A stretch of DNA of 24,000 nucleotides, from NCBI GenBank assembly GCA_009904015.1, contig WYEQ01000012.1, positions 131,188 through 155,187 of the forward strand, written 5' to 3'. The notes under the pieces are model-generated. The model did not search any database and was not told the DNA's origin. It saw only the letters and a list, made by a program, of their open reading frames with translations. The position numbers and the translations under genes are program-made. The stretch comes from Desulfurococcales archaeon. Lineage in GTDB: Archaea > Thermoproteota > Thermoprotei_A > Sulfolobales > Fervidicoccaceae. Of this stretch, positions 3,227 through 13,513 are shown one piece after another (positions within the stretch are counted from its first letter, which is position 1; each line of letters begins with the position of its first letter).

Positions 3227-3313
3227 GCGGGGGTGCCCGAGCTGGACAAAGGGGGCGGACTTAAGATCCGCTGGCGTAGGCCTGCGTGGGTTCAAATCCC
3301 ACCCCCCGCACCA
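3227..3313 (+). tRNA. tRNA-Leu (anticodon UAA), class II with long variable arm, CCA encoded
   Basis: Acceptor stem GCGGGGG (3227-3233) pairs with CCCCCGC (3303-3309). Anticodon stem GCGGA/TCCGC carries loop C-T-TAA-G-A, with the anticodon at 3262-3264. The variable arm is about 14 nt (GGC-GTAG-GCC). T arm is GTGGG-TTCAAAT-CCCAC. Discriminator A3310 is followed by CCA at 3311-3313. Confidence 0.9.
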
Positions 3314-5991: not shown

Positions 5992-7200
5992 TCATTTCTT
6001 TATGAGCGGTTCGCCACCATAAGTTACCATGAGCAGTGTTTCCTCGTTAAGTTTAACAACGCTTTCAGGCAGAGGCACGTAGAATAATGGCTCAGCGTAC
6101 TTCTGCCCATCATGTGTAGCCCACCACAGGAAATTCACCAAGGCTTGTGCTGTCGCCTTATCCATGCCTGGCACAACGCTTAGGTCTTTATATATGAATA
6201 TGTATGAGAAACTAGTTATTGGATAGGCTCCTTTGGCATCCTTGTTAGTAGCTACCATATCAACGATGGATACATTCGCCCAGCTTTCATTTCCTTTGGG
6301 TAATTTAAGTGCGGCGTACTCAACTGCTTTCTGGAAGCTCTGAGTGCTTGGCTCAACAACTTCACCTGCAGCATTCACGATATATGCATATTTAATGTTG
6401 TTCTTCTTCGCGTATGTGTACTCGACATACCCAATAGAGTATGGAGTCTGCATTACCATGGCGCTTACTCCCTCATTCCCCTTAGCACCAACTCCGGCAG
6501 GCCAATTAACGCTTGTGCCCATACCCACCGTAGAGCGCCATTTATCGCTTACTCTAGATAAATAGTTCGTGAACACATAGGTTGTTCCGCTACCGTCAGA
6601 CCTATGCACCACAACTATGTCTTTATCGGGGAGCGCTATGCCTGGGTTAAGTGAGGCTATCAATGGGTCGTTCCACTTGTTTATCTCACCTAGATATATC
6701 TTAGATATCACTTCTCCTGATAATATCAATGATTGGTTCAGGCCTGGTAGATTATAGATTATTACTACTCCACCTATAGTCATGGGCAGCGTCAGTGTTC
6801 CCTGTGCCTTTGCCCATTGTTCATCGTTAAGGGGAGCATCGCTAGCAGCGAAATGAACGGTTTTATCCAGGTGAGCCCTTATTCCCCCACCGCTACCGAT
6901 GGATTGGTAGTTTATAAATATATTTGGATACAGTTTGTTGTACTCTGCACACCACTTGTCATAGAGAGGGAAAGGAAAAGTTGCCCCAGCCCCATTAAGT
7001 GTGATTTTACTCATGGTTGGTGTTGTAGTGATCGTTGTAGTTGTGGGAGTGGTTGCCGTTGTTGTGGTTGTGGTTGCAGTGGTCGTCGTTAATGTTGTAT
7101 AGGTTGTTGTTTCTTTTTTCTGTGGGGGGTTCACAAAGACAAATGCTATGCCTGCAATTACGATTAATAGGATTGCAACAATGTAGACGAACTTATTCAT
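5992..7200 (-). CDS. pstS: phosphate-binding protein PstS, membrane-anchored with a Thr-rich linker
   Basis: 402 aa. After an N-terminal hydrophobic anchor and linker, the mature domain begins ITLNGAGATFPFPLY..W, followed by YQSIGSGGG and SDGSGTT, all PstS-type phosphate-site motifs. Confidence 0.9.
   Translation of the reverse strand: MNKFVYIVAILLIVIAGIAFVFVNPPQKKETTTYTTLTTTTATTTTTTATTPTTTTITTTPTMSKITLNGAGATFPFPLYDKWCAEYNKLYPNIFINYQSIGSGGGIRAHLDKTVHFAASDAPLNDEQWAKAQGTLTLPMTIGGVVIIYNLPGLNQSLILSGEVISKIYLGEINKWNDPLIASLNPGIALPDKDIVVVHRSDGSGTTYVFTNYLSRVSDKWRSTVGMGTSVNWPAGVGAKGNEGVSAMVMQTPYSIGYVEYTYAKKNNIKYAYIVNAAGEVVEPSTQSFQKAVEYAALKLPKGNESWANVSIVDMVATNKDAKGAYPITSFSYIFIYKDLSVVPGMDKATAQALVNFLWWATHDGQKYAEPLFYVPLPESVVKLNEETLLMVTYGGEPLIKK
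7015..7110 (-). repeat. low-complexity ACN-codon run encoding the PstS Thr-rich linker (residues 31-62)
   Basis: It translates to TTTYTTLTTTTATTTTTTATTPTTTTITTTPT. On the plus strand it appears as a GGT/TGT/AGT-rich tract. Confidence 0.9.
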
Positions 7201-7293: not shown

Positions 7294-8322
7294 ATGAGAG
7301 AAAAGAATATAAGAAATGTACTGATTGTTGGCGGATCTACACTCGTTGTCTCGTTGCCGAAGAAATGGGCTGAAGAAATAGGCATCAGGCCGGGCAGCCA
7401 AGTAGTCCTAGAAAGAGAGAAAGATAAAATAGCGGTTATTCCTCTGGAGAAATATAAAAAGCCAATGAAAGAGAAAAAGGCCATTATAAGAATAAACGGA
7501 AAGAACACAAACAGTGTAAGCAGGCTCATCATATCCTCGTATATTAATGGTTACAAGGAAATATCCTTAGTCGATAACAACGGGATAACCATAGAGCTAA
7601 GAAACTCAATAAAGGAACTATTAAAAAGAAAAATTGTTGGAAGCGAAATCATACTGGATTCCCCCACAGAAGTTAAAATCAAAGTACTTGTTAATCAAGA
7701 GGAACTACCGCTCATAAATGCCTTTAGGAGAATGTACTTTTTAACAAAAAACATGATTGAGGATGCCGGCCATGCTTTGCTCAACTGGGATATAGAAAAA
7801 GCCATGAATGTTTTACAACTAGATGATGAGGTCGATAGGTTCGGCTTCTATATAGTACGCTTATTAAACACGTATGTAGAAAACCCCAATGCCTCAAGCG
7901 AAATTGGTATCATTGACTTGAAGGAAGCATTGGGTTATAGAGTCGTAGTTAAGTTTCTAGAGAGAATAGCTGACCATGCATCCAACATTTCAAAATTCAT
8001 ACTGGAATCAGAAAAGAGAATAGACGAACTAACATTAAATAGACTACACGAAATGTATAAAGTTGCTAGTGAAATGTTTGAATACGCCTTAACGTCCTTC
8101 ATGAAGAAGGACTACGAACTAGCGGAAAAAACAATATCGAAAGCCAAGACCTTATTAGTTAATGAAAAAGAACTAGAGCAAGCTATGGTAAAAGCACCGG
8201 TAGGCTCACACCCCTATGTAAGGATTATCTATGAAAGCATAAAACGCATTATAGATTACTCGAGCGATATTGCCGAGATAACAATTGACCTGAACATAGA
8301 AAAAGTACTAGATAAACTCTAA
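7294..8322 (+). CDS. phosphate-uptake regulator: N-terminal AbrB/SpoVT DNA-binding domain fused to PhoU repeats
   Basis: 342 aa. The N-terminus VGGSTLVVSLPKKWAEEIGIRPGSQV is a SpoVT/AbrB swapped-hairpin motif. The remainder is helical with PhoU-like elements (DDEVDRF, ERIADHASNI, ERIIDYSSDIAE). It is divergent from pstSCAB. Confidence 0.85.
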   Translation: MREKNIRNVLIVGGSTLVVSLPKKWAEEIGIRPGSQVVLEREKDKIAVIPLEKYKKPMKEKKAIIRINGKNTNSVSRLIISSYINGYKEISLVDNNGITIELRNSIKELLKRKIVGSEIILDSPTEVKIKVLVNQEELPLINAFRRMYFLTKNMIEDAGHALLNWDIEKAMNVLQLDDEVDRFGFYIVRLLNTYVENPNASSEIGIIDLKEALGYRVVVKFLERIADHASNISKFILESEKRIDELTLNRLHEMYKVASEMFEYALTSFMKKDYELAEKTISKAKTLLVNEKELEQAMVKAPVGSHPYVRIIYESIKRIIDYSSDIAEITIDLNIEKVLDKL

Positions 8323-8336
8323 AACCACTGTGTTCT

Positions 8337-9050
8337 TCACAGAGTTTCAAGCAGCGTCTCTACTGGGATTTTTAGGTCTAAGTTTCTCTCTATAATTTCT
8401 CTAAGTTTCTCTCTATTTCCCTTAAAGACAAATAAGCCGTTTACATTAGCGTGTAGCCTGCTAGCTAGGTTTATTAATGATAAGCATTCCTCAGCCTCGC
8501 ATTCATATAGCGAGATAAGCACTTTGTCTTTTCTCTGTATGCATTTTCGTGAGAGCGCGTACGCCTTTATTTCCTTGGTCGAGGAAGCGTAAACCTCGTA
8601 TATGTAATTTTTGCTGAATATTCTCGGTGACGCTACACATAGCTTTGCTCTGAAGTTTAGTGCCAACACGGTGCTTATAGCTACCGAGAATGGGTCGTCT
8701 TTAGTTATTATTACCATGGCGTCATTAGCCCATTTTTCATTAGCAAGCTTAAGATACGCGAGTAGAAGTACCCCTGGATTGGTAACATCTATTTCTAGCT
8801 CCTCGGATTCTTTTAGCTTATCTAAGATTTTCTGTACGAGCTTTTTTTCTTTGACCTTCTCTATTATTTTAAGGGCCGTTTCCTTCTCCGGCACGGCTCG
8901 GAAGGAGAGGTATCTCCATAGAACTTGTGATGATATCTCAAGTAGCGACTCTAGCTCCTTGAAGGAATAAAAGTACTTGAGAGCCTTTAGTATATTCAGC
9001 ATGAGAAGTCTTATGTTTTCTTCCTCAGAGAAATCTAGTGTTTCTCCCAA
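8337..9050 (-). CDS. putative regulator: N-terminal winged-HTH-like region plus a degenerate type-I phosphoribosyltransferase-like domain
   Basis: 237-aa ORF with a TTG start at 9050. The N-terminus (FKELESLLEISSQVLWRYLS) is HTH-like. The C-terminal half follows the PRTase strand pattern (DAMVIITKDDPFSVAISTVLA..., then KDKVLISLYECEAEECLSL...V.GLFVF). The PRPP loop VLIVDDxxxTGxT is replaced by VLISLYECEAEEC. Confidence 0.55.
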   Translation of the reverse strand: MGETLDFSEEENIRLLMLNILKALKYFYSFKELESLLEISSQVLWRYLSFRAVPEKETALKIIEKVKEKKLVQKILDKLKESEELEIDVTNPGVLLLAYLKLANEKWANDAMVIITKDDPFSVAISTVLALNFRAKLCVASPRIFSKNYIYEVYASSTKEIKAYALSRKCIQRKDKVLISLYECEAEECLSLINLASRLHANVNGLFVFKGNREKLREIIERNLDLKIPVETLLETL

Positions 9051-9172: not shown

Positions 9173-9709
9173 TCATGGAACTCGAGAAACGAAGAACCTC
9201 AATATCATGCTGGTAATCGACAATGCCAGCGCGATTAATATAGCTACTTCAACCCACGAGTATCTTCTTATCTTTTTTACCTTTATTGGGACTGGCTTGA
9301 TGATATCGGCCTCAGCTTCTCTAGCTTCTTCGTATTCTTTTCTCCATAATGCCGGAGGGGATATGCATTCATAAGTCTTCTCGCTATGTATGTCGCCCTT
9401 CTCATTAATTATGTTCTTGATAACATCGTAGTATTTTCTTATTAGCTTAAACCTAGGCGTTTCCATCACTAGGTATTCGAAGCTGTTCCAGCAATTCTTG
9501 ATGCCTCCCAGAATTAAATCGCTTTCCTTTCTTGCTAGGTAATATTTTAATTCGTAGTTAACATCGTAGTTCATTTTTGTCGAGTCTTCTTCCAAGACAT
9601 ATATGAATGACTCCAAGCTTATTAATAGCCCATCTATTGTTCTCGCGAGAGTCGCGGAAGTCAATAGATACTTGTAATCATCGTCGTGGTGGCCTTTAGC
9701 TGGATGCAT
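9173..9709 (-). CDS. hypothetical tail-anchored membrane protein
   Basis: 178-aa ORF. It has a soluble helical N-terminal part and a single C-terminal hydrophobic helix (WVEVAILIALALSITSMILRFFV). No family recognised. Confidence 0.5.
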   Translation of the reverse strand: MHPAKGHHDDDYKYLLTSATLARTIDGLLISLESFIYVLEEDSTKMNYDVNYELKYYLARKESDLILGGIKNCWNSFEYLVMETPRFKLIRKYYDVIKNIINEKGDIHSEKTYECISPPALWRKEYEEAREAEADIIKPVPIKVKKIRRYSWVEVAILIALALSITSMILRFFVSRVP

Positions 9710-9905
9710 TAATCATCACGCTTAACGGATTTTGAGAAGCTTGTTTTCTCCATGTCTTATAATTTCTTGTTGATGTAGGTTAATTTATATCTGCTTATGC
9801 TCATAGTTTTCTTATTGCTTTAATTTTAATAACTTCTTTGATAAATTATAAAGATAGTTGTTTTTTTCTGCATAAAAAAGAAAGAAATTGAACCGTTGAT
9901 GAATA

Positions 9906-11570
9906 ATGATTGATTTATTGCTTGTTCACCCGCCAAGCTACTATTACTTTAGGGAGGAGAAAAGAGTATATGGCCCTATAGCTGATGTTGTGCCCAGTTC
10001 CCCTGTTTACGATATGTACCCTTACGGGTTCTTCTCAATAACCTATTACTTATTGAAAAAAGGCTATAAGGCTCGTATACACAACGCTGCGGCGTTAATG
10101 GTACTCGATGAAAGCTACAGGTTCGAGGATTATCTGAGAGGTATAGATGCTAAGCTATATGGAGTTGACCTGCACTGGCTTCCTCACGCTCACGGTGCGC
10201 TTGAAGTAGCGAAGATATTAAAGAAAATTAAAGGAGAAGTCCCCGTCGTGCTCGGAGGCTTATCAGCGAGCATATTCTGGGCAGAGATACTCACTAAATA
10301 CGATTTCGTGGACTACGTGCTTGTGGGCGATACAACGGAGAAATCAATAGAGAAGCTAATCATGTATATAGAGGGGAAAGGCAGGCTAGAGGATATAGAG
10401 GGCCTTGCGTACCGCGAGGAAGGGAGAGTCAAGCTTAACCCACCTAGAAAACCCGAGCCATTGCTTAATGAGTACAAGATTGATTTTAATTATCTATTTA
10501 AATACGCTCTCACGGATGACCCCTTATCATTCACACCATTCTCATCATTCATGAATAATCCCATCGGGGCTGTCCTCGTTTTCAAGGGATGCTTGTACAG
10601 CTGCGCCACGTGCGGAGGAGGAAGAAACACATACATGGAGTACCTGGGCAGAGACAGGGTTTCATTTAAAACTCCAGATGTAGTGGCTGATGAGATACTA
10701 AGCATAAATTCATGGTCGAGGATCCCCGTGTTCGTGATTGGAGATCTACAGCTAGTAGGTGGGGAGAAGTACGCGGAAGCTCTCGTGAAGGAGCTCAGGG
10801 AAAACGGCTTTGACGCGCCAATATACTTCGAGTTCTTCTATCCTCCGCCTCATGGGTTGCTTGAAAAAATCATTAAGGCAAGCCACACCGTTTATCTCCA
10901 GTTATCTCCTGAAACACAGGATGAGTTCTTAAGAATAAAGTTTGGTAGACAGTATAATAATACGATGCTCGAGAAATTCATAGAGAGAGCTCACAAGCTC
11001 GGCTTCTCGAGAATAGATCTTTACTTCATGCATGGCATACCGTTCCAAACAATGGATGTAGCCCTCAAGCTGCCCAGATACGTCGAGAATCTCTACGGCC
11101 AGTACAAGAACTCGAGAATCGATGTCTTCGTTTCTCCCCTAGCACCGTTCATCGATCCTGGGAGCCCAGCTTTCAAGTACCCATTTTTATATGGCTATAA
11201 ACTCAAAGCAAAAACATTGTCTGAGCACGTGGATTTGATAAGCAGGTCTCGAACCTGGGTGGAGATGCTGAACTACGAGAGCTACTACATGAGTAACACC
11301 GAGTTAGCGATTGCTACGGCTAAAACGGGGCTCGAGCTACTGAAAATAAAGGCAAGATATGGCATAATAGATGAAGACATCGCGAGAAAGCAAATCGAGG
11401 TAATAGAAAACTACCTCGAGAGTCACGGAGAAACAATCGGTATAGACAAAAAAATCGTTGTGCCCTTCGAGGAGCTATACGAAACTCTCGATCTAGGCAA
11501 GCTTTTGAGAAACCCCGATGAGATCTCGAAGATACTTATAAATATAACTAGGTTTGGCGAAAATAACTAG
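9906..11570 (+). CDS. radical SAM enzyme with an N-terminal B12-binding-like (Rossmann) domain (class B-like)
   Basis: 554 aa. The CxxxCxxC cluster is C229-LYS-C233-AT-C236 (nt 10590-10613). The preceding ~200 aa show the B12-binding-domain pattern (LLVHPP..., PYGFFSITYYLLKKGY, VVLGGLSASIFW, VLVGDTTEKSI). Confidence 0.88.
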   Translation: MIDLLLVHPPSYYYFREEKRVYGPIADVVPSSPVYDMYPYGFFSITYYLLKKGYKARIHNAAALMVLDESYRFEDYLRGIDAKLYGVDLHWLPHAHGALEVAKILKKIKGEVPVVLGGLSASIFWAEILTKYDFVDYVLVGDTTEKSIEKLIMYIEGKGRLEDIEGLAYREEGRVKLNPPRKPEPLLNEYKIDFNYLFKYALTDDPLSFTPFSSFMNNPIGAVLVFKGCLYSCATCGGGRNTYMEYLGRDRVSFKTPDVVADEILSINSWSRIPVFVIGDLQLVGGEKYAEALVKELRENGFDAPIYFEFFYPPPHGLLEKIIKASHTVYLQLSPETQDEFLRIKFGRQYNNTMLEKFIERAHKLGFSRIDLYFMHGIPFQTMDVALKLPRYVENLYGQYKNSRIDVFVSPLAPFIDPGSPAFKYPFLYGYKLKAKTLSEHVDLISRSRTWVEMLNYESYYMSNTELAIATAKTGLELLKIKARYGIIDEDIARKQIEVIENYLESHGETIGIDKKIVVPFEELYETLDLGKLLRNPDEISKILINITRFGENN

Positions 11571-11579
11571 ACAGGCAAT

Positions 11580-11816
11580 ATGCTGGAGAGGACTCATCCC
11601 ATGGATACGGAGGAGCTACGCATCGATAACTGCTCAGGCAACCCGGATAACATTGCTAGAATAGTTAATGATGTCAGAGGAAAAGTAGCTATGGGAGCTA
11701 AGAAAATAATTGTGAGAATACCTGAAGAAAGCTTCGTGGAATGCCTGGATATATTGAGGACTATTTCCACCGAGTTTATTTACCTCTCTATAGAGGTTTA
11801 TGAGGATGGCAGTTAA
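11580..11816 (+). CDS. small (78 aa) two-Cys protein, possibly with a TusA/SirA-like fold
   Basis: The ORF starts 9 nt after the upstream radical SAM stop. It has a balanced alpha/beta-type composition with Cys18 and Cys55. It is followed by an AATTTTTATTA T-tract. See findings. Confidence 0.55.
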   Translation: MLERTHPMDTEELRIDNCSGNPDNIARIVNDVRGKVAMGAKKIIVRIPEESFVECLDILRTISTEFIYLSIEVYEDGS

Positions 11817-11908
11817 AAAGTAACTGTTAATTTTTATTACGCTTTACGGGACATATTATATTATTCGAATATGAATAAACATAACAAACAATACTAAGGC
11901 GCGTTGAT

Positions 11909-13513
11909 TTGCTAGCTACATACGACATTATCATAACGACGGATCGTTCCATGATGAGTAATCATAGGGGAAAAGAGTTTCTCGGCTTCATGAGCACAGC
12001 CCCACCGGTTGGCCTGCCCGACGCGGTGTGGAGATGGATCGCCACGCCTAAGCTAAGGGTAGATGACTATGGTAGACCTGAGCAGGCTCCCTATGGACTA
12101 AGAAAAATAGAGGCAGCGCTGCAGGATGCTGGTTACTCAGCAGCGATAATTGACCCGGACCACGTGAAAAGATATGTCTATAAAGCTAAGGCTATATTCA
12201 TTGGTCACCACGATTATTTCGCATTTAATCCTCCAAGCTCAGAGTACTGGCTTGTAACTGGTGAGGAGCCCCTCAACAGAAGACTCTTCCTCCAGTTCAT
12301 CGAGAAAATAGCGGATTACAAAGAAAGGCTTAACCCCGACTTGAAAATAATAGTGGGAGGACCAGCAGCCTGGCAGTGGTTGCATGTTCCAGGCTACGTT
12401 GAGAAGTACAAGATCGATACCATCGTCGAGGGGGAGGGAGAAAGAGTTGTTATTGAGCTCGCTCGCAGAATAATCAATGGAGAAAAACTCCCAAGATACA
12501 TAGTTGCGGGACCACTCGAGTCGCCAAGCATAGAGGAAATACCAGTAATAAAAGGACCGAGTATAAACGGCTTAGTGGAAATCATGAGGGGATGCCCGAG
12601 AGGATGCGCGTTCTGCAGTGTTACCCTGAGGAAGCTCAGGTTCATACCACTAGAAGTCATCGAAAAAGAAGTCAAGATTAACAGACAGCACGGAATAAAG
12701 GGAGGGATCCTCCACAGCGAGGACGTCCCGCTATATGGTGGGAGTGGGATAACCCCGAATATAGATTCATTGCTCAAGCTTCACCGCGTTGTCTCCCAGT
12801 ACTACGAGGATTATGACTGGAGCCACGCAGCCTTAGCAACGCTTCTGCATGGAGAGAAGACATCCAAGCTAGTATCTAGGTTATCAGAAACCCTGTTATC
12901 TGATGGCTGGAAATACCTTGGTTTCCAAACCGGGATAGAAACAGGGAGCTCAAGGCTCGCGGCAAAGATAATGCCCGGGAAAGCAGCTCCCTTCAAGCCA
13001 GACAAATGGCCAGATGTAGTAAGAGAGGTCATGCCTATTCTCCACGACAACTTCTTTATACCCGCAGCAACAGTTATTCTGGGCTTTCCAGGCGAGGCCC
13101 CTGATGATGTAGTGAAGACAATAGAGCTTATAGACGACCTAAAGCCATACAGAGTCCTTATTGTACCCATGTTCTTCGTCCCCATGGGCGCTCTAAGAAG
13201 AGAAGACTGGTTCACTAGCGTCAACATTACTTACGAGCACGCTGAGCTGTTACAAGCTATTCTCAAGCATAGCCTGTACTGGAGCAAAGATATATTGAGG
13301 AACTTCTACATGAATAAGCTAAGATACCTGCCATTCAAGTATGCTTTACTCTCCTTTATAAGAAGAGCTGAGAAATTCTCTGAGGAGCTAACGCCGGAGA
13401 AGATACTGTACTACATTGAGAACTCGAAGAAAAAGCTAGCTTCAAGAACACGCGAGAAGGAGGTCATCTCAAGTAAGCATTTACTAAGAAAACTGGTAAG
13501 CATTCATAATTGA
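11909..13513 (+). CDS. second, non-identical radical SAM enzyme with an N-terminal B12-binding-like domain
   Basis: 534 aa with a TTG start. The CxxxCxxC cluster is C229-PRG-C233-AF-C236 (nt 12593-12616), the same residue numbers as the upstream paralogue. The N-terminal domain contains IIVGGPAAWQW and IVEGEGERVV. Confidence 0.88.
   Translation: MLATYDIIITTDRSMMSNHRGKEFLGFMSTAPPVGLPDAVWRWIATPKLRVDDYGRPEQAPYGLRKIEAALQDAGYSAAIIDPDHVKRYVYKAKAIFIGHHDYFAFNPPSSEYWLVTGEEPLNRRLFLQFIEKIADYKERLNPDLKIIVGGPAAWQWLHVPGYVEKYKIDTIVEGEGERVVIELARRIINGEKLPRYIVAGPLESPSIEEIPVIKGPSINGLVEIMRGCPRGCAFCSVTLRKLRFIPLEVIEKEVKINRQHGIKGGILHSEDVPLYGGSGITPNIDSLLKLHRVVSQYYEDYDWSHAALATLLHGEKTSKLVSRLSETLLSDGWKYLGFQTGIETGSSRLAAKIMPGKAAPFKPDKWPDVVREVMPILHDNFFIPAATVILGFPGEAPDDVVKTIELIDDLKPYRVLIVPMFFVPMGALRREDWFTSVNITYEHAELLQAILKHSLYWSKDILRNFYMNKLRYLPFKYALLSFIRRAEKFSEELTPEKILYYIENSKKKLASRTREKEVISSKHLLRKLVSIHN

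Follow-up and report, generated by a model that had tools for sequence, protein, structure and literature searches.

A grsA orthologue with a conserved small companion gene and a class-B radical SAM gene in a probable lipid-tailoring cluster of an uncultured Thermoproteota lineage

The window, a stretch of 24,000 nucleotides (nt) from a Desulfurococcales archaeon (assembly GCA_009904015.1, contig WYEQ01000012.1, positions 131,188 to 155,187), contains three consecutive genes encoding a protein of 554 amino acids (aa) of the radical S-adenosylmethionine (SAM) type, p1, a small protein of 78 aa, and a second radical SAM protein of 534 aa, p2. Our analysis indicates that this region is probably a cluster of genes with which the hydrocarbon tails of glycerol dialkyl glycerol tetraethers (GDGTs) are tailored, carried by an uncultured hot-spring member of the Thermoproteota. 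It amounts to a largely known lipid pathway, represented by p2, combined with an apparently undescribed conserved partner of GrsA, the small protein, and with the class-B radical SAM enzyme p1. The three open reading frames (ORFs) had been pointed out in a preliminary description made from the sequence alone. Their lengths and the 9-nt gap between the first two were confirmed, as was the CxxxCxxC motif located at Cys229/233/236 in both large proteins, which have no other Cys.

p2 and its relationship to GrsA

The GrsA reference was identified by a search seeded with a Sulfolobaceae member followed by a cluster look-up, which led to AAY80898.1, the UniRef entry Q4J8I0_SULAC. GrsA is the GDGT ring synthase A of Sulfolobus acidocaldarius, according to the part of PMC13459092 that cites Zeng et al. 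2019, and the names GrsA and GrsB are given to Q4J8I0 and Q4JC22, respectively (bioRxiv 10.64898/2026.04.11.717812; PMC13023045). The protein ADX85470.1 from S. islandicus REY15A, a strain reported to carry one grsA and one grsB gene, was found within the same 90%-identity clusters. BLASTP of p2 against AAY80898.1 (Q4J8I0) gave an alignment of 477 aa with 51% identity and 72% positives (E = 0). When 5.8 billion proteins were searched, the p2 family proved very tightly conserved, with 50-64% identity across the Desulfurococcales, Sulfolobales, Ignisphaera, Thermofilaceae, Conexivisphaera, Caldarchaeales and non-ammonia-oxidising Nitrososphaerota, and with a mean column identity of 62% in the p2/GrsA family alignment. 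By its sequence, p2 is clearly a GrsA orthologue and a member of this Thermoproteota family, and an activity in GDGT ring synthesis is expected from the homology.

Pfam analysis of p2 matched Radical_SAM and, partially, PF02310, with 20.9 bits against a cut-off of 32.1 and over residues 129-184 only. In the published view, Grs enzymes carry the radical SAM cluster without auxiliary clusters, and p2 fits this view because it contains only three Cys. The closest solved structure by sequence is MgmA (9CCB, E = 1e-10). Tetraether synthase (Tes) was considered as an identity for p1 or p2 and rejected, given that the Protein Data Bank (PDB) returned no match to 7TOL-type chains, the solved M. jannaschii enzyme, and that each protein has only three Cys.

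The two large proteins are only remotely related. BLASTP between p1 and p2 aligned 17 residues around the cluster (E = 0.023), and the comparison of their family profiles with hhalign gave E = 3.7e-6 and 18% identity over 320 columns. p1 and p2 are, on these comparisons, separate class-B families, in agreement with the distinct, strongly diverged subfamilies proposed earlier. That their Cys carry the same numbers is coincidental, arising from the domain lengths, and depends on the TTG start of p2, a start supported by the conservation of the N-terminal DFxITTDR segment in the family.

Two side observations concern GrsA proteins themselves. The deposited 489-aa form of S. acidocaldarius GrsA begins at an internal Met, upstream of which a 505-aa form and nearly all homologues harbor the DFxITTDR segment; the Q4J8I0 reference annotation is therefore probably truncated. 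In a Desulfurococcales metagenome-assembled genome (MAG), a generic B12-domain radical SAM gene (L012, 4726-6180) lies 1.2 kb downstream of grsA, and its 484-aa product is 22% identical to p1 and 22% identical to p2.

The small protein as a companion of GrsA

The 78-aa ORF is a real gene and not a chance ORF. It is conserved in five related contigs (L002-L004, L007 and L008), among which synonymous sites are saturated in nearly all pairwise comparisons; ratios of nonsynonymous to synonymous substitution rates could be estimated for two window-clade pairs and were 0.13 and 0.22. The related copies retain a C-terminal SEFIYLSxEVYE motif and both Cys of the protein, Cys18 and Cys55, which are its only two. 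The label of 'Cys protein' that it had first received does not suit it, since these Cys are confined to the window's clade and lost in most members of the family.

A phmmer search of 1.84 billion representatives retrieved only four relatives, one of them encoded directly upstream of the GrsA gene in a Desulfurococcales MAG without p1. In another genome, a divergent copy of 116 aa runs into the start of grsA, and the gene precedes grsA without p1 in L005 and L008. A hidden Markov model (HMM) of the partner was then iterated over 5312 ORFs, including those of 80 GrsA loci (L011-L090) from species-representative genomes. This yielded 61 matches at E < 1e-3, 60 of which correspond to the same-strand ORF immediately upstream of grsA; the remaining match also lies upstream of grsA and was flagged for an over-extended ORF call. 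Counted over the 78 representative Thermoproteota loci with sufficient upstream sequence, the partner is present as a strong match in 51 and as a marginal one in 5 more, and about ten GrsA loci have no same-strand ORF directly upstream. Most often the partner gene abuts grsA or overlaps with it, the median gap being about 1 nt and the median partner length 120 aa, an arrangement that probably leads to co-translation and complex formation.

The AlphaFold2 (AF2) model of the window's small protein is a compact β-α-β-α-β domain with a predicted local distance difference test (pLDDT) score of 87.5. The protein is thus predicted to adopt a minimal Rossmann-like fold, within a fast-evolving family of 70-145 aa whose long forms (115-145 aa) add one further β-α-β. 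Foldseek comparison of the partner model with the PDB returned generic Rossmann-like βαβ segments only (best E = 0.03) and no significant neighbour, and no Pfam or NCBIfam family matched the partner above threshold. The nearest candidate, DUF5751 (PF19025), gave weak matches in 4 of 54 partner proteins (best E = 0.0016, 18 bits against a gathering threshold of 27) and none to the window copy, so the partner is not a member by the Pfam criterion. Profile-profile comparisons of the partner family with those of GrsA and TIGR04190 yielded no match, so at the sequence level the partner is not recognisable as a split-off radical SAM domain.

Analysis of partner and enzyme lengths revealed that the partner is shorter where the C-terminal tail of GrsA is longer (Spearman rho = -0.66, p = 5e-8, n = 54, with no phylogenetic correction). 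Taken together, synteny, conservation, fold and length covariation speak for a functional, and probably also physical, link of the partner to GrsA; it could be a structural, regulatory or cofactor-handling subunit of that enzyme. The literature searched makes no mention of a grsA-linked small gene, which is weak evidence of its being undescribed; the partner is apparently a widely conserved, undescribed companion of GrsA. The preliminary description had envisaged that the region might reduce to characterised enzymes of a known lipid pathway plus a chance ORF. Orthology to a characterised enzyme was indeed found for p2, but the small ORF is conserved.

p1 and the three-gene arrangement

p1 is a member of NCBIfam TIGR04190, one of the models named in the preliminary description, with 598.3 bits against a curated cut-off of 500 and a match covering model positions 1-522 of 554. 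Pfam detected PF02310 (42.2 bits, threshold 32.1), which bears out the B12-binding-like N-terminal domain first seen by eye, as well as PF04055 (33.6 bits, above threshold). An AF2 model of p1 built with 38 homologues reached a pLDDT of 90, and its best PDB folds by Foldseek were TsrM, CysS, TokK, MgmA and OxsB (E from 6e-18 to 2e-13). By its domains and modelled fold, p1 is a cobalamin-type (class-B) radical SAM enzyme, for which cobalamin binding is predicted. BLASTP against GrsA gave a 17-residue match (E = 0.03) and no BLAST-level similarity. The literature searched contained nothing on TIGR04190 or Ta0216, and this analysis could tie no TIGR04190 member to an experiment. The initial proposal that the two enzymes belong to largely uncharacterised B12-domain radical SAM families therefore holds for p1, in TIGR04190, but not for p2, in the GrsA family. 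Conversely, their proposed role as a lipid-cyclisation pair is retained for p2 and not for p1, which belongs to another family without BLAST similarity to GrsA.

The triad formed by p1, the small gene and grsA was found in the window, in a near-identical contig from the Joint Genome Institute (JGI; L001) and in four further contigs (L002-L004 and L007). Among the distinct triad relatives, identity falls to 59% for p1 and to 69% for p2. In a neighbour-joining (NJ) tree of p1, the window's lineage forms a clade with 100% support, apart from a clade of Bathyarchaeia and anaerobic methanotrophic archaea (ANME) supported at 93%. A Methanoperedenaceae genome encodes a TIGR04190 protein. The triad occurs solely in the uncultured lineage of the window itself, which is not represented among the species-representative genomes, since the best GrsA there is 64% identical to p2. 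Conservation of the triad in other genomes, a check suggested in the preliminary description, was thus seen within this lineage but not beyond it, where the partner-grsA pair stands without p1. The partner gene is located 1-35 nt after p1 and 66-125 nt before grsA in the triad lineage, whereas it abuts grsA elsewhere. The simplest history starts from an ancestral partner-grsA pair, upstream of which p1 became inserted.

Other TIGR04190 genes lie in varied settings. The JGI 3300033490 metagenome, from which L001 originates, contains a second TIGR04190 gene on another contig of 148 kb (L108, Ga0326760_1000011); its product is 39% identical to p1 and no grsA is nearby. A metagenome scan covered 80 TIGR04190 loci, about 20 of which display a bacterial-type synteny with a UshA-like gene, SelA, RluD and YfiH. 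A gene for a MenA-like UbiA-family polyprenyltransferase is found near the TIGR04190 gene in 11 metagenomic loci (L107, L109, L113, L126, L128, L136, L139, L142, L146, L151 and L168); in several of these, the two genes share a strand and the polyprenyltransferase gene directly abuts the TIGR04190 gene on its upstream side. In Fervidicoccaceae-like genomes, a MmgE/PrpD-family gene abuts or overlaps the TIGR04190 start (L091, 6676-8001; L094, 5628-6971; L104, 3646-5004). On Bathyarchaeia-like contigs, a Get3/ArsA-family ATPase gene adjoins the TIGR04190 gene (L098, 4012-4995; L095, 2457-3350), overlapping its start by 4 nt in L098. In Infirmifilum/Thermofilaceae-like loci (L093, 6205-7272; also L101 and L106), a TIGR04084 gene and a LysE-type exporter gene precede it, and the TIGR04084 (AF0577-family) product, weighed as a possible Gms, is a 355-aa radical SAM/SPASM protein without the N-terminal helical domain described for Gms. 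A 520-aa radical SAM protein encoded near a Fervidicoccaceae p1 homologue was considered as a GrsA and rejected (22% identity, E = 2e-7).

Layout of the region and flanking genes

The coordinates of the region are collected in Table 1. The JGI annotation places the start of the small gene at Met8 (11601), giving a protein of 71 aa.

Table 1. Features of the region, in window coordinates
Feature	Position	Strand	Remarks
Intergenic region, 196 nt, 74% A+T	9710..9905		Putative promoter region for p1 and the small gene
p1, TIGR04190 (Ta0216-family) B12-binding-domain radical SAM protein	9906..11570	+	554 aa, ATG start
Small protein	11580..11816	+	78 aa; short form of the GrsA-associated βαβαβ partner family
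Spacer between small gene and p2, 92 nt	11817..11908	+	Candidate internal grsA promoter, from its composition and boxes also seen in relatives
p2, GrsA orthologue	11909..13513	+	534 aa, TTG start

The A+T-rich, promoter-like spacer noticed before the second enzyme in the preliminary description was recovered: its A+T content is 73%, compared with 57% for the window, and it contains two boxes: AATTTTTATTAC, of T-tract/TATA-like type, and ATATTATATTATT, also TATA-like. Similar boxes are found again in the corresponding spacers of four relatives, and an internal grsA promoter is possible at this position. A scan of the region for sigma-70 promoters and intrinsic terminators performed no better than on shuffled sequences, sigma-70 models being unsuited to archaea, and no RNA element was detected there with Rfam.

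The presumed promoter region of p1 separates it from a divergent 178-aa gene (9173-9709, minus strand), which is accompanied by a 237-aa gene on the same strand (8337-9050). Neither product has a family match, and the 178-aa protein ends in a C-terminal hydrophobic helix. Both genes keep this place upstream of p1 in the relative L004, whereas L003 has kept the 178-aa gene. Neither occurs beside p1 homologues elsewhere, and a role of the pair as a widespread p1 accessory was rejected, as the similar-sized ORFs beside other p1 homologues are not homologous. Further away, the window encodes a PstS-type phosphate-binding protein with a long Thr-rich linker following a signal/anchor segment (5992-7200, minus strand) and a PhoU protein that carries a fused AbrB/MazE-like domain at its N terminus (7294-8322, plus strand), the latter by a pstCAB operon and the PstS gene. 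A tRNA-Leu(TAA) gene (3227-3313, plus strand) is the sole Rfam or ARAGORN match in the window.

Proposed mechanism, alternatives and known systems

In the mechanism that we propose, the single [4Fe-4S] cluster of p2/GrsA would reductively cleave SAM to a 5'-deoxyadenosyl radical, which would take two hydrogens in succession from the biphytanyl chain. A C-C bond would then close a cyclopentane ring at C-7, leading to GDGT-1 to GDGT-4. A literature review proposes cobalamin as the stabiliser of the first substrate radical in Grs, with the N-terminal Rossmann-like domain as its holder. The partner would bind GrsA as a subunit for cofactor loading, reduction, membrane docking or regulation. p1, recruited beside the partner-grsA pair only in the window's lineage, would carry out another modification of the same lipid tails, such as methylation or desaturation; by analogy with known tail modifiers, we lean towards such a role, for example as a methylase or desaturase of the Gmm, Cgm or Ted type.

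A more far-reaching reading, which we regard as tentative and rather doubtful, would make the small protein an undescribed subunit or activator of GrsA in most Thermoproteota, in contact with the GrsA tail and shared with p1, itself responsible for an unassigned GDGT modification. The partner would then have been overlooked because the Sulfolobaceae, where GrsA was characterised, appear to be devoid of it (two MAG loci), and its length would covary with that of the GrsA tail because the two parts touch.

GDGT ring numbers underlie the TEX86 palaeothermometer and account for the tolerance of archaea to heat and acid. To our knowledge, GrsA has been studied genetically and never reconstituted in vitro, and its use of cobalamin has only been proposed. 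Found at about two thirds of GrsA loci, a conserved and translationally coupled partner could supply what such a reconstitution has lacked. It could also regulate ring number, and it would change the counting of grs genes in metagenomes. TIGR04190 is a large family, and the stable association of its member with grsA in a single lineage offers a concrete functional hypothesis.

Several observations weigh against assigning the whole region to GDGT tailoring. A GrsA-like gene was found within 5 kb in none of the 80 metagenomic TIGR04190 loci, many of which look bacterial, with SelA, RluD and Nuo neighbours, and no AttH-like (Hgs) gene was seen among the flanking genes examined in five of them. 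The lack of Ted-type loci, in which an AttH-like hydratase gene overlaps and grs is present, among the loci examined neither supports nor excludes a link to Ted, because most loci look bacterial. The NCBIfam entry of TIGR04190 reads 'Ta0216 family B12-binding domain/radical SAM domain protein' and gives no function, and the grouping of the window's p1 lineage with Fervidicoccaceae homologues reaches an NJ bootstrap of only 54%. The likeness of p1 to the tail modifiers Gmm, Cgm, Pgm and Ted was judged only from overlapping taxon ranges and the shared grs neighbourhood. Concerning the partner, its position is taken by an unrelated 80-aa ORF in the two Sulfolobaceae MAG loci examined, so the partner is not universally required.

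Three other explanations of the region were weighed. p1 might have a substrate unrelated to lipids, such as a cofactor or a small metabolite, and stand beside grsA by chance in one lineage. The restriction of this adjacency to the window's lineage, the PrpD-like, Get3/ArsA, MenA-like or radical SAM/SPASM genes that TIGR04190 genes abut elsewhere, and the family's want of a function name in NCBIfam all fit this view. We nevertheless consider it unlikely: the triad is kept in five relatives (L001-L004 and L007) despite the drop in p1 identity, the co-localisation of Grs with a second B12-domain radical SAM enzyme is a documented theme, and the MenA-like prenyltransferase neighbour points to isoprenoid chemistry. 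Less probable still is a GrsA/GrsB pair, with p1 as a GrsB-type ring synthase adding C-3 rings after the C-7 rings made by p2. Both proteins are class-B-like and have one cluster each, two grs types are often present in Thermoproteia MAGs according to the literature, the taxa with TIGR04190 resemble the reported range of grs homologues, and the '31% similarity' reported between GrsA and GrsB (PMC8473941) could mean a weak relationship. However, the literature treats GrsA and GrsB as BLAST-level homologues and combines them in a single HMM and a single tree, for which Saci_1785 serves as outgroup, whereas p1 shares with GrsA no BLAST-detectable similarity and only the profile-level resemblance (E = 3.7e-6, 18% identity); the relation of p1 to GrsB was judged here through the comparison with GrsA and published descriptions of GrsA and GrsB, not from the GrsB sequence. 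Moreover, a Methanoperedens genome searched with GrsA and GrsB is reported to give no match and to make no rings, yet a Methanoperedenaceae genome encodes a TIGR04190 protein.

The preliminary description had also entertained a peptide, protein or sulfur modification cassette, in which the 78-aa protein would be the substrate or carrier of one or both radical SAM enzymes. Its position between two radical SAM genes, 9 nt after the first, its two Cys conserved within the window's clade, and the fact that MgmA, a protein-modifying class-B enzyme, is the closest solved relative of p2 by sequence are consistent with this proposal. Other findings speak against it, and we give it very little credence. 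p2 is orthologous to GrsA, the predicted structure of the small protein is a compact folded domain and not a leader/core peptide, the Cys are lost in most members of a family that includes long forms, and no model of the type used for ribosomally synthesised and post-translationally modified peptides was matched above threshold. The small gene tracks grsA, not p1, across phyla-level distances.

The reading that we retain, a GDGT tail-tailoring cluster, can finally be set against known systems. Like GrsA (Saci_1585, Q4J8I0), p2 carries a single CxxxCxxC motif and no further Cys, aligns over its full length and would combine a putative N-terminal Rossmann-like domain with a partial TIM barrel. 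It differs from the Sulfolobaceae GrsA by an extra C-terminal tail of about 50 residues and, unlike the two Sulfolobaceae MAG loci, its gene is preceded by the partner gene. The p1 model shares the Rossmann, TIM-barrel and C-terminal domains of TsrM (6WTE), CysS (9N1B), TokK (7KDX), MgmA (9CCB) and OxsB (5UL4), with template modelling (TM) scores of about 0.55-0.6. These enzymes differ from p1 in sequence, with only 12-17% identity, and act on unrelated substrates (tryptophan, polyketide, carbapenem, protein).

Closer in genomic context are the B12-domain radical SAM modifiers of GDGT tails whose genes repeatedly occur near grs, namely Gmm, Cgm, Pgm and Ted, a set described as GDGT/GMGT methylases and a tetraether desaturase (PMC11214058; bioRxiv 10.1101/2025.10.20.683597). 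Gmm (WP_062369928.1) is the methylase of glycerol monoalkyl glycerol tetraethers in T. guaymasensis, with its gene beside grs; Cgm is Saci_1785, another GDGT-tail modifier of this type; the gene for Pgm (NF865_RS03100) in T. aggregans is four locus tags from grs; and Ted (GBSed_1000338310), a tetraether desaturase, is encoded next to grs in a Bathyarchaeon. The TIGR04190 loci examined differ in having no adjacent Gms-like gene or AttH/Hgs partner. The taxa of p1 homologues overlap the ranges reported for Cgm (Fervidicoccaceae, Desulfurococcales and Thermoplasmata) and for Ted (Bathyarchaeota, ANME, Thermoplasmatota and Asgard). Like Gmm, Cgm, Pgm and Ted, p1 exceeds 495 aa, combines a B12 domain with a radical SAM domain and has a grs gene adjacent to its own.

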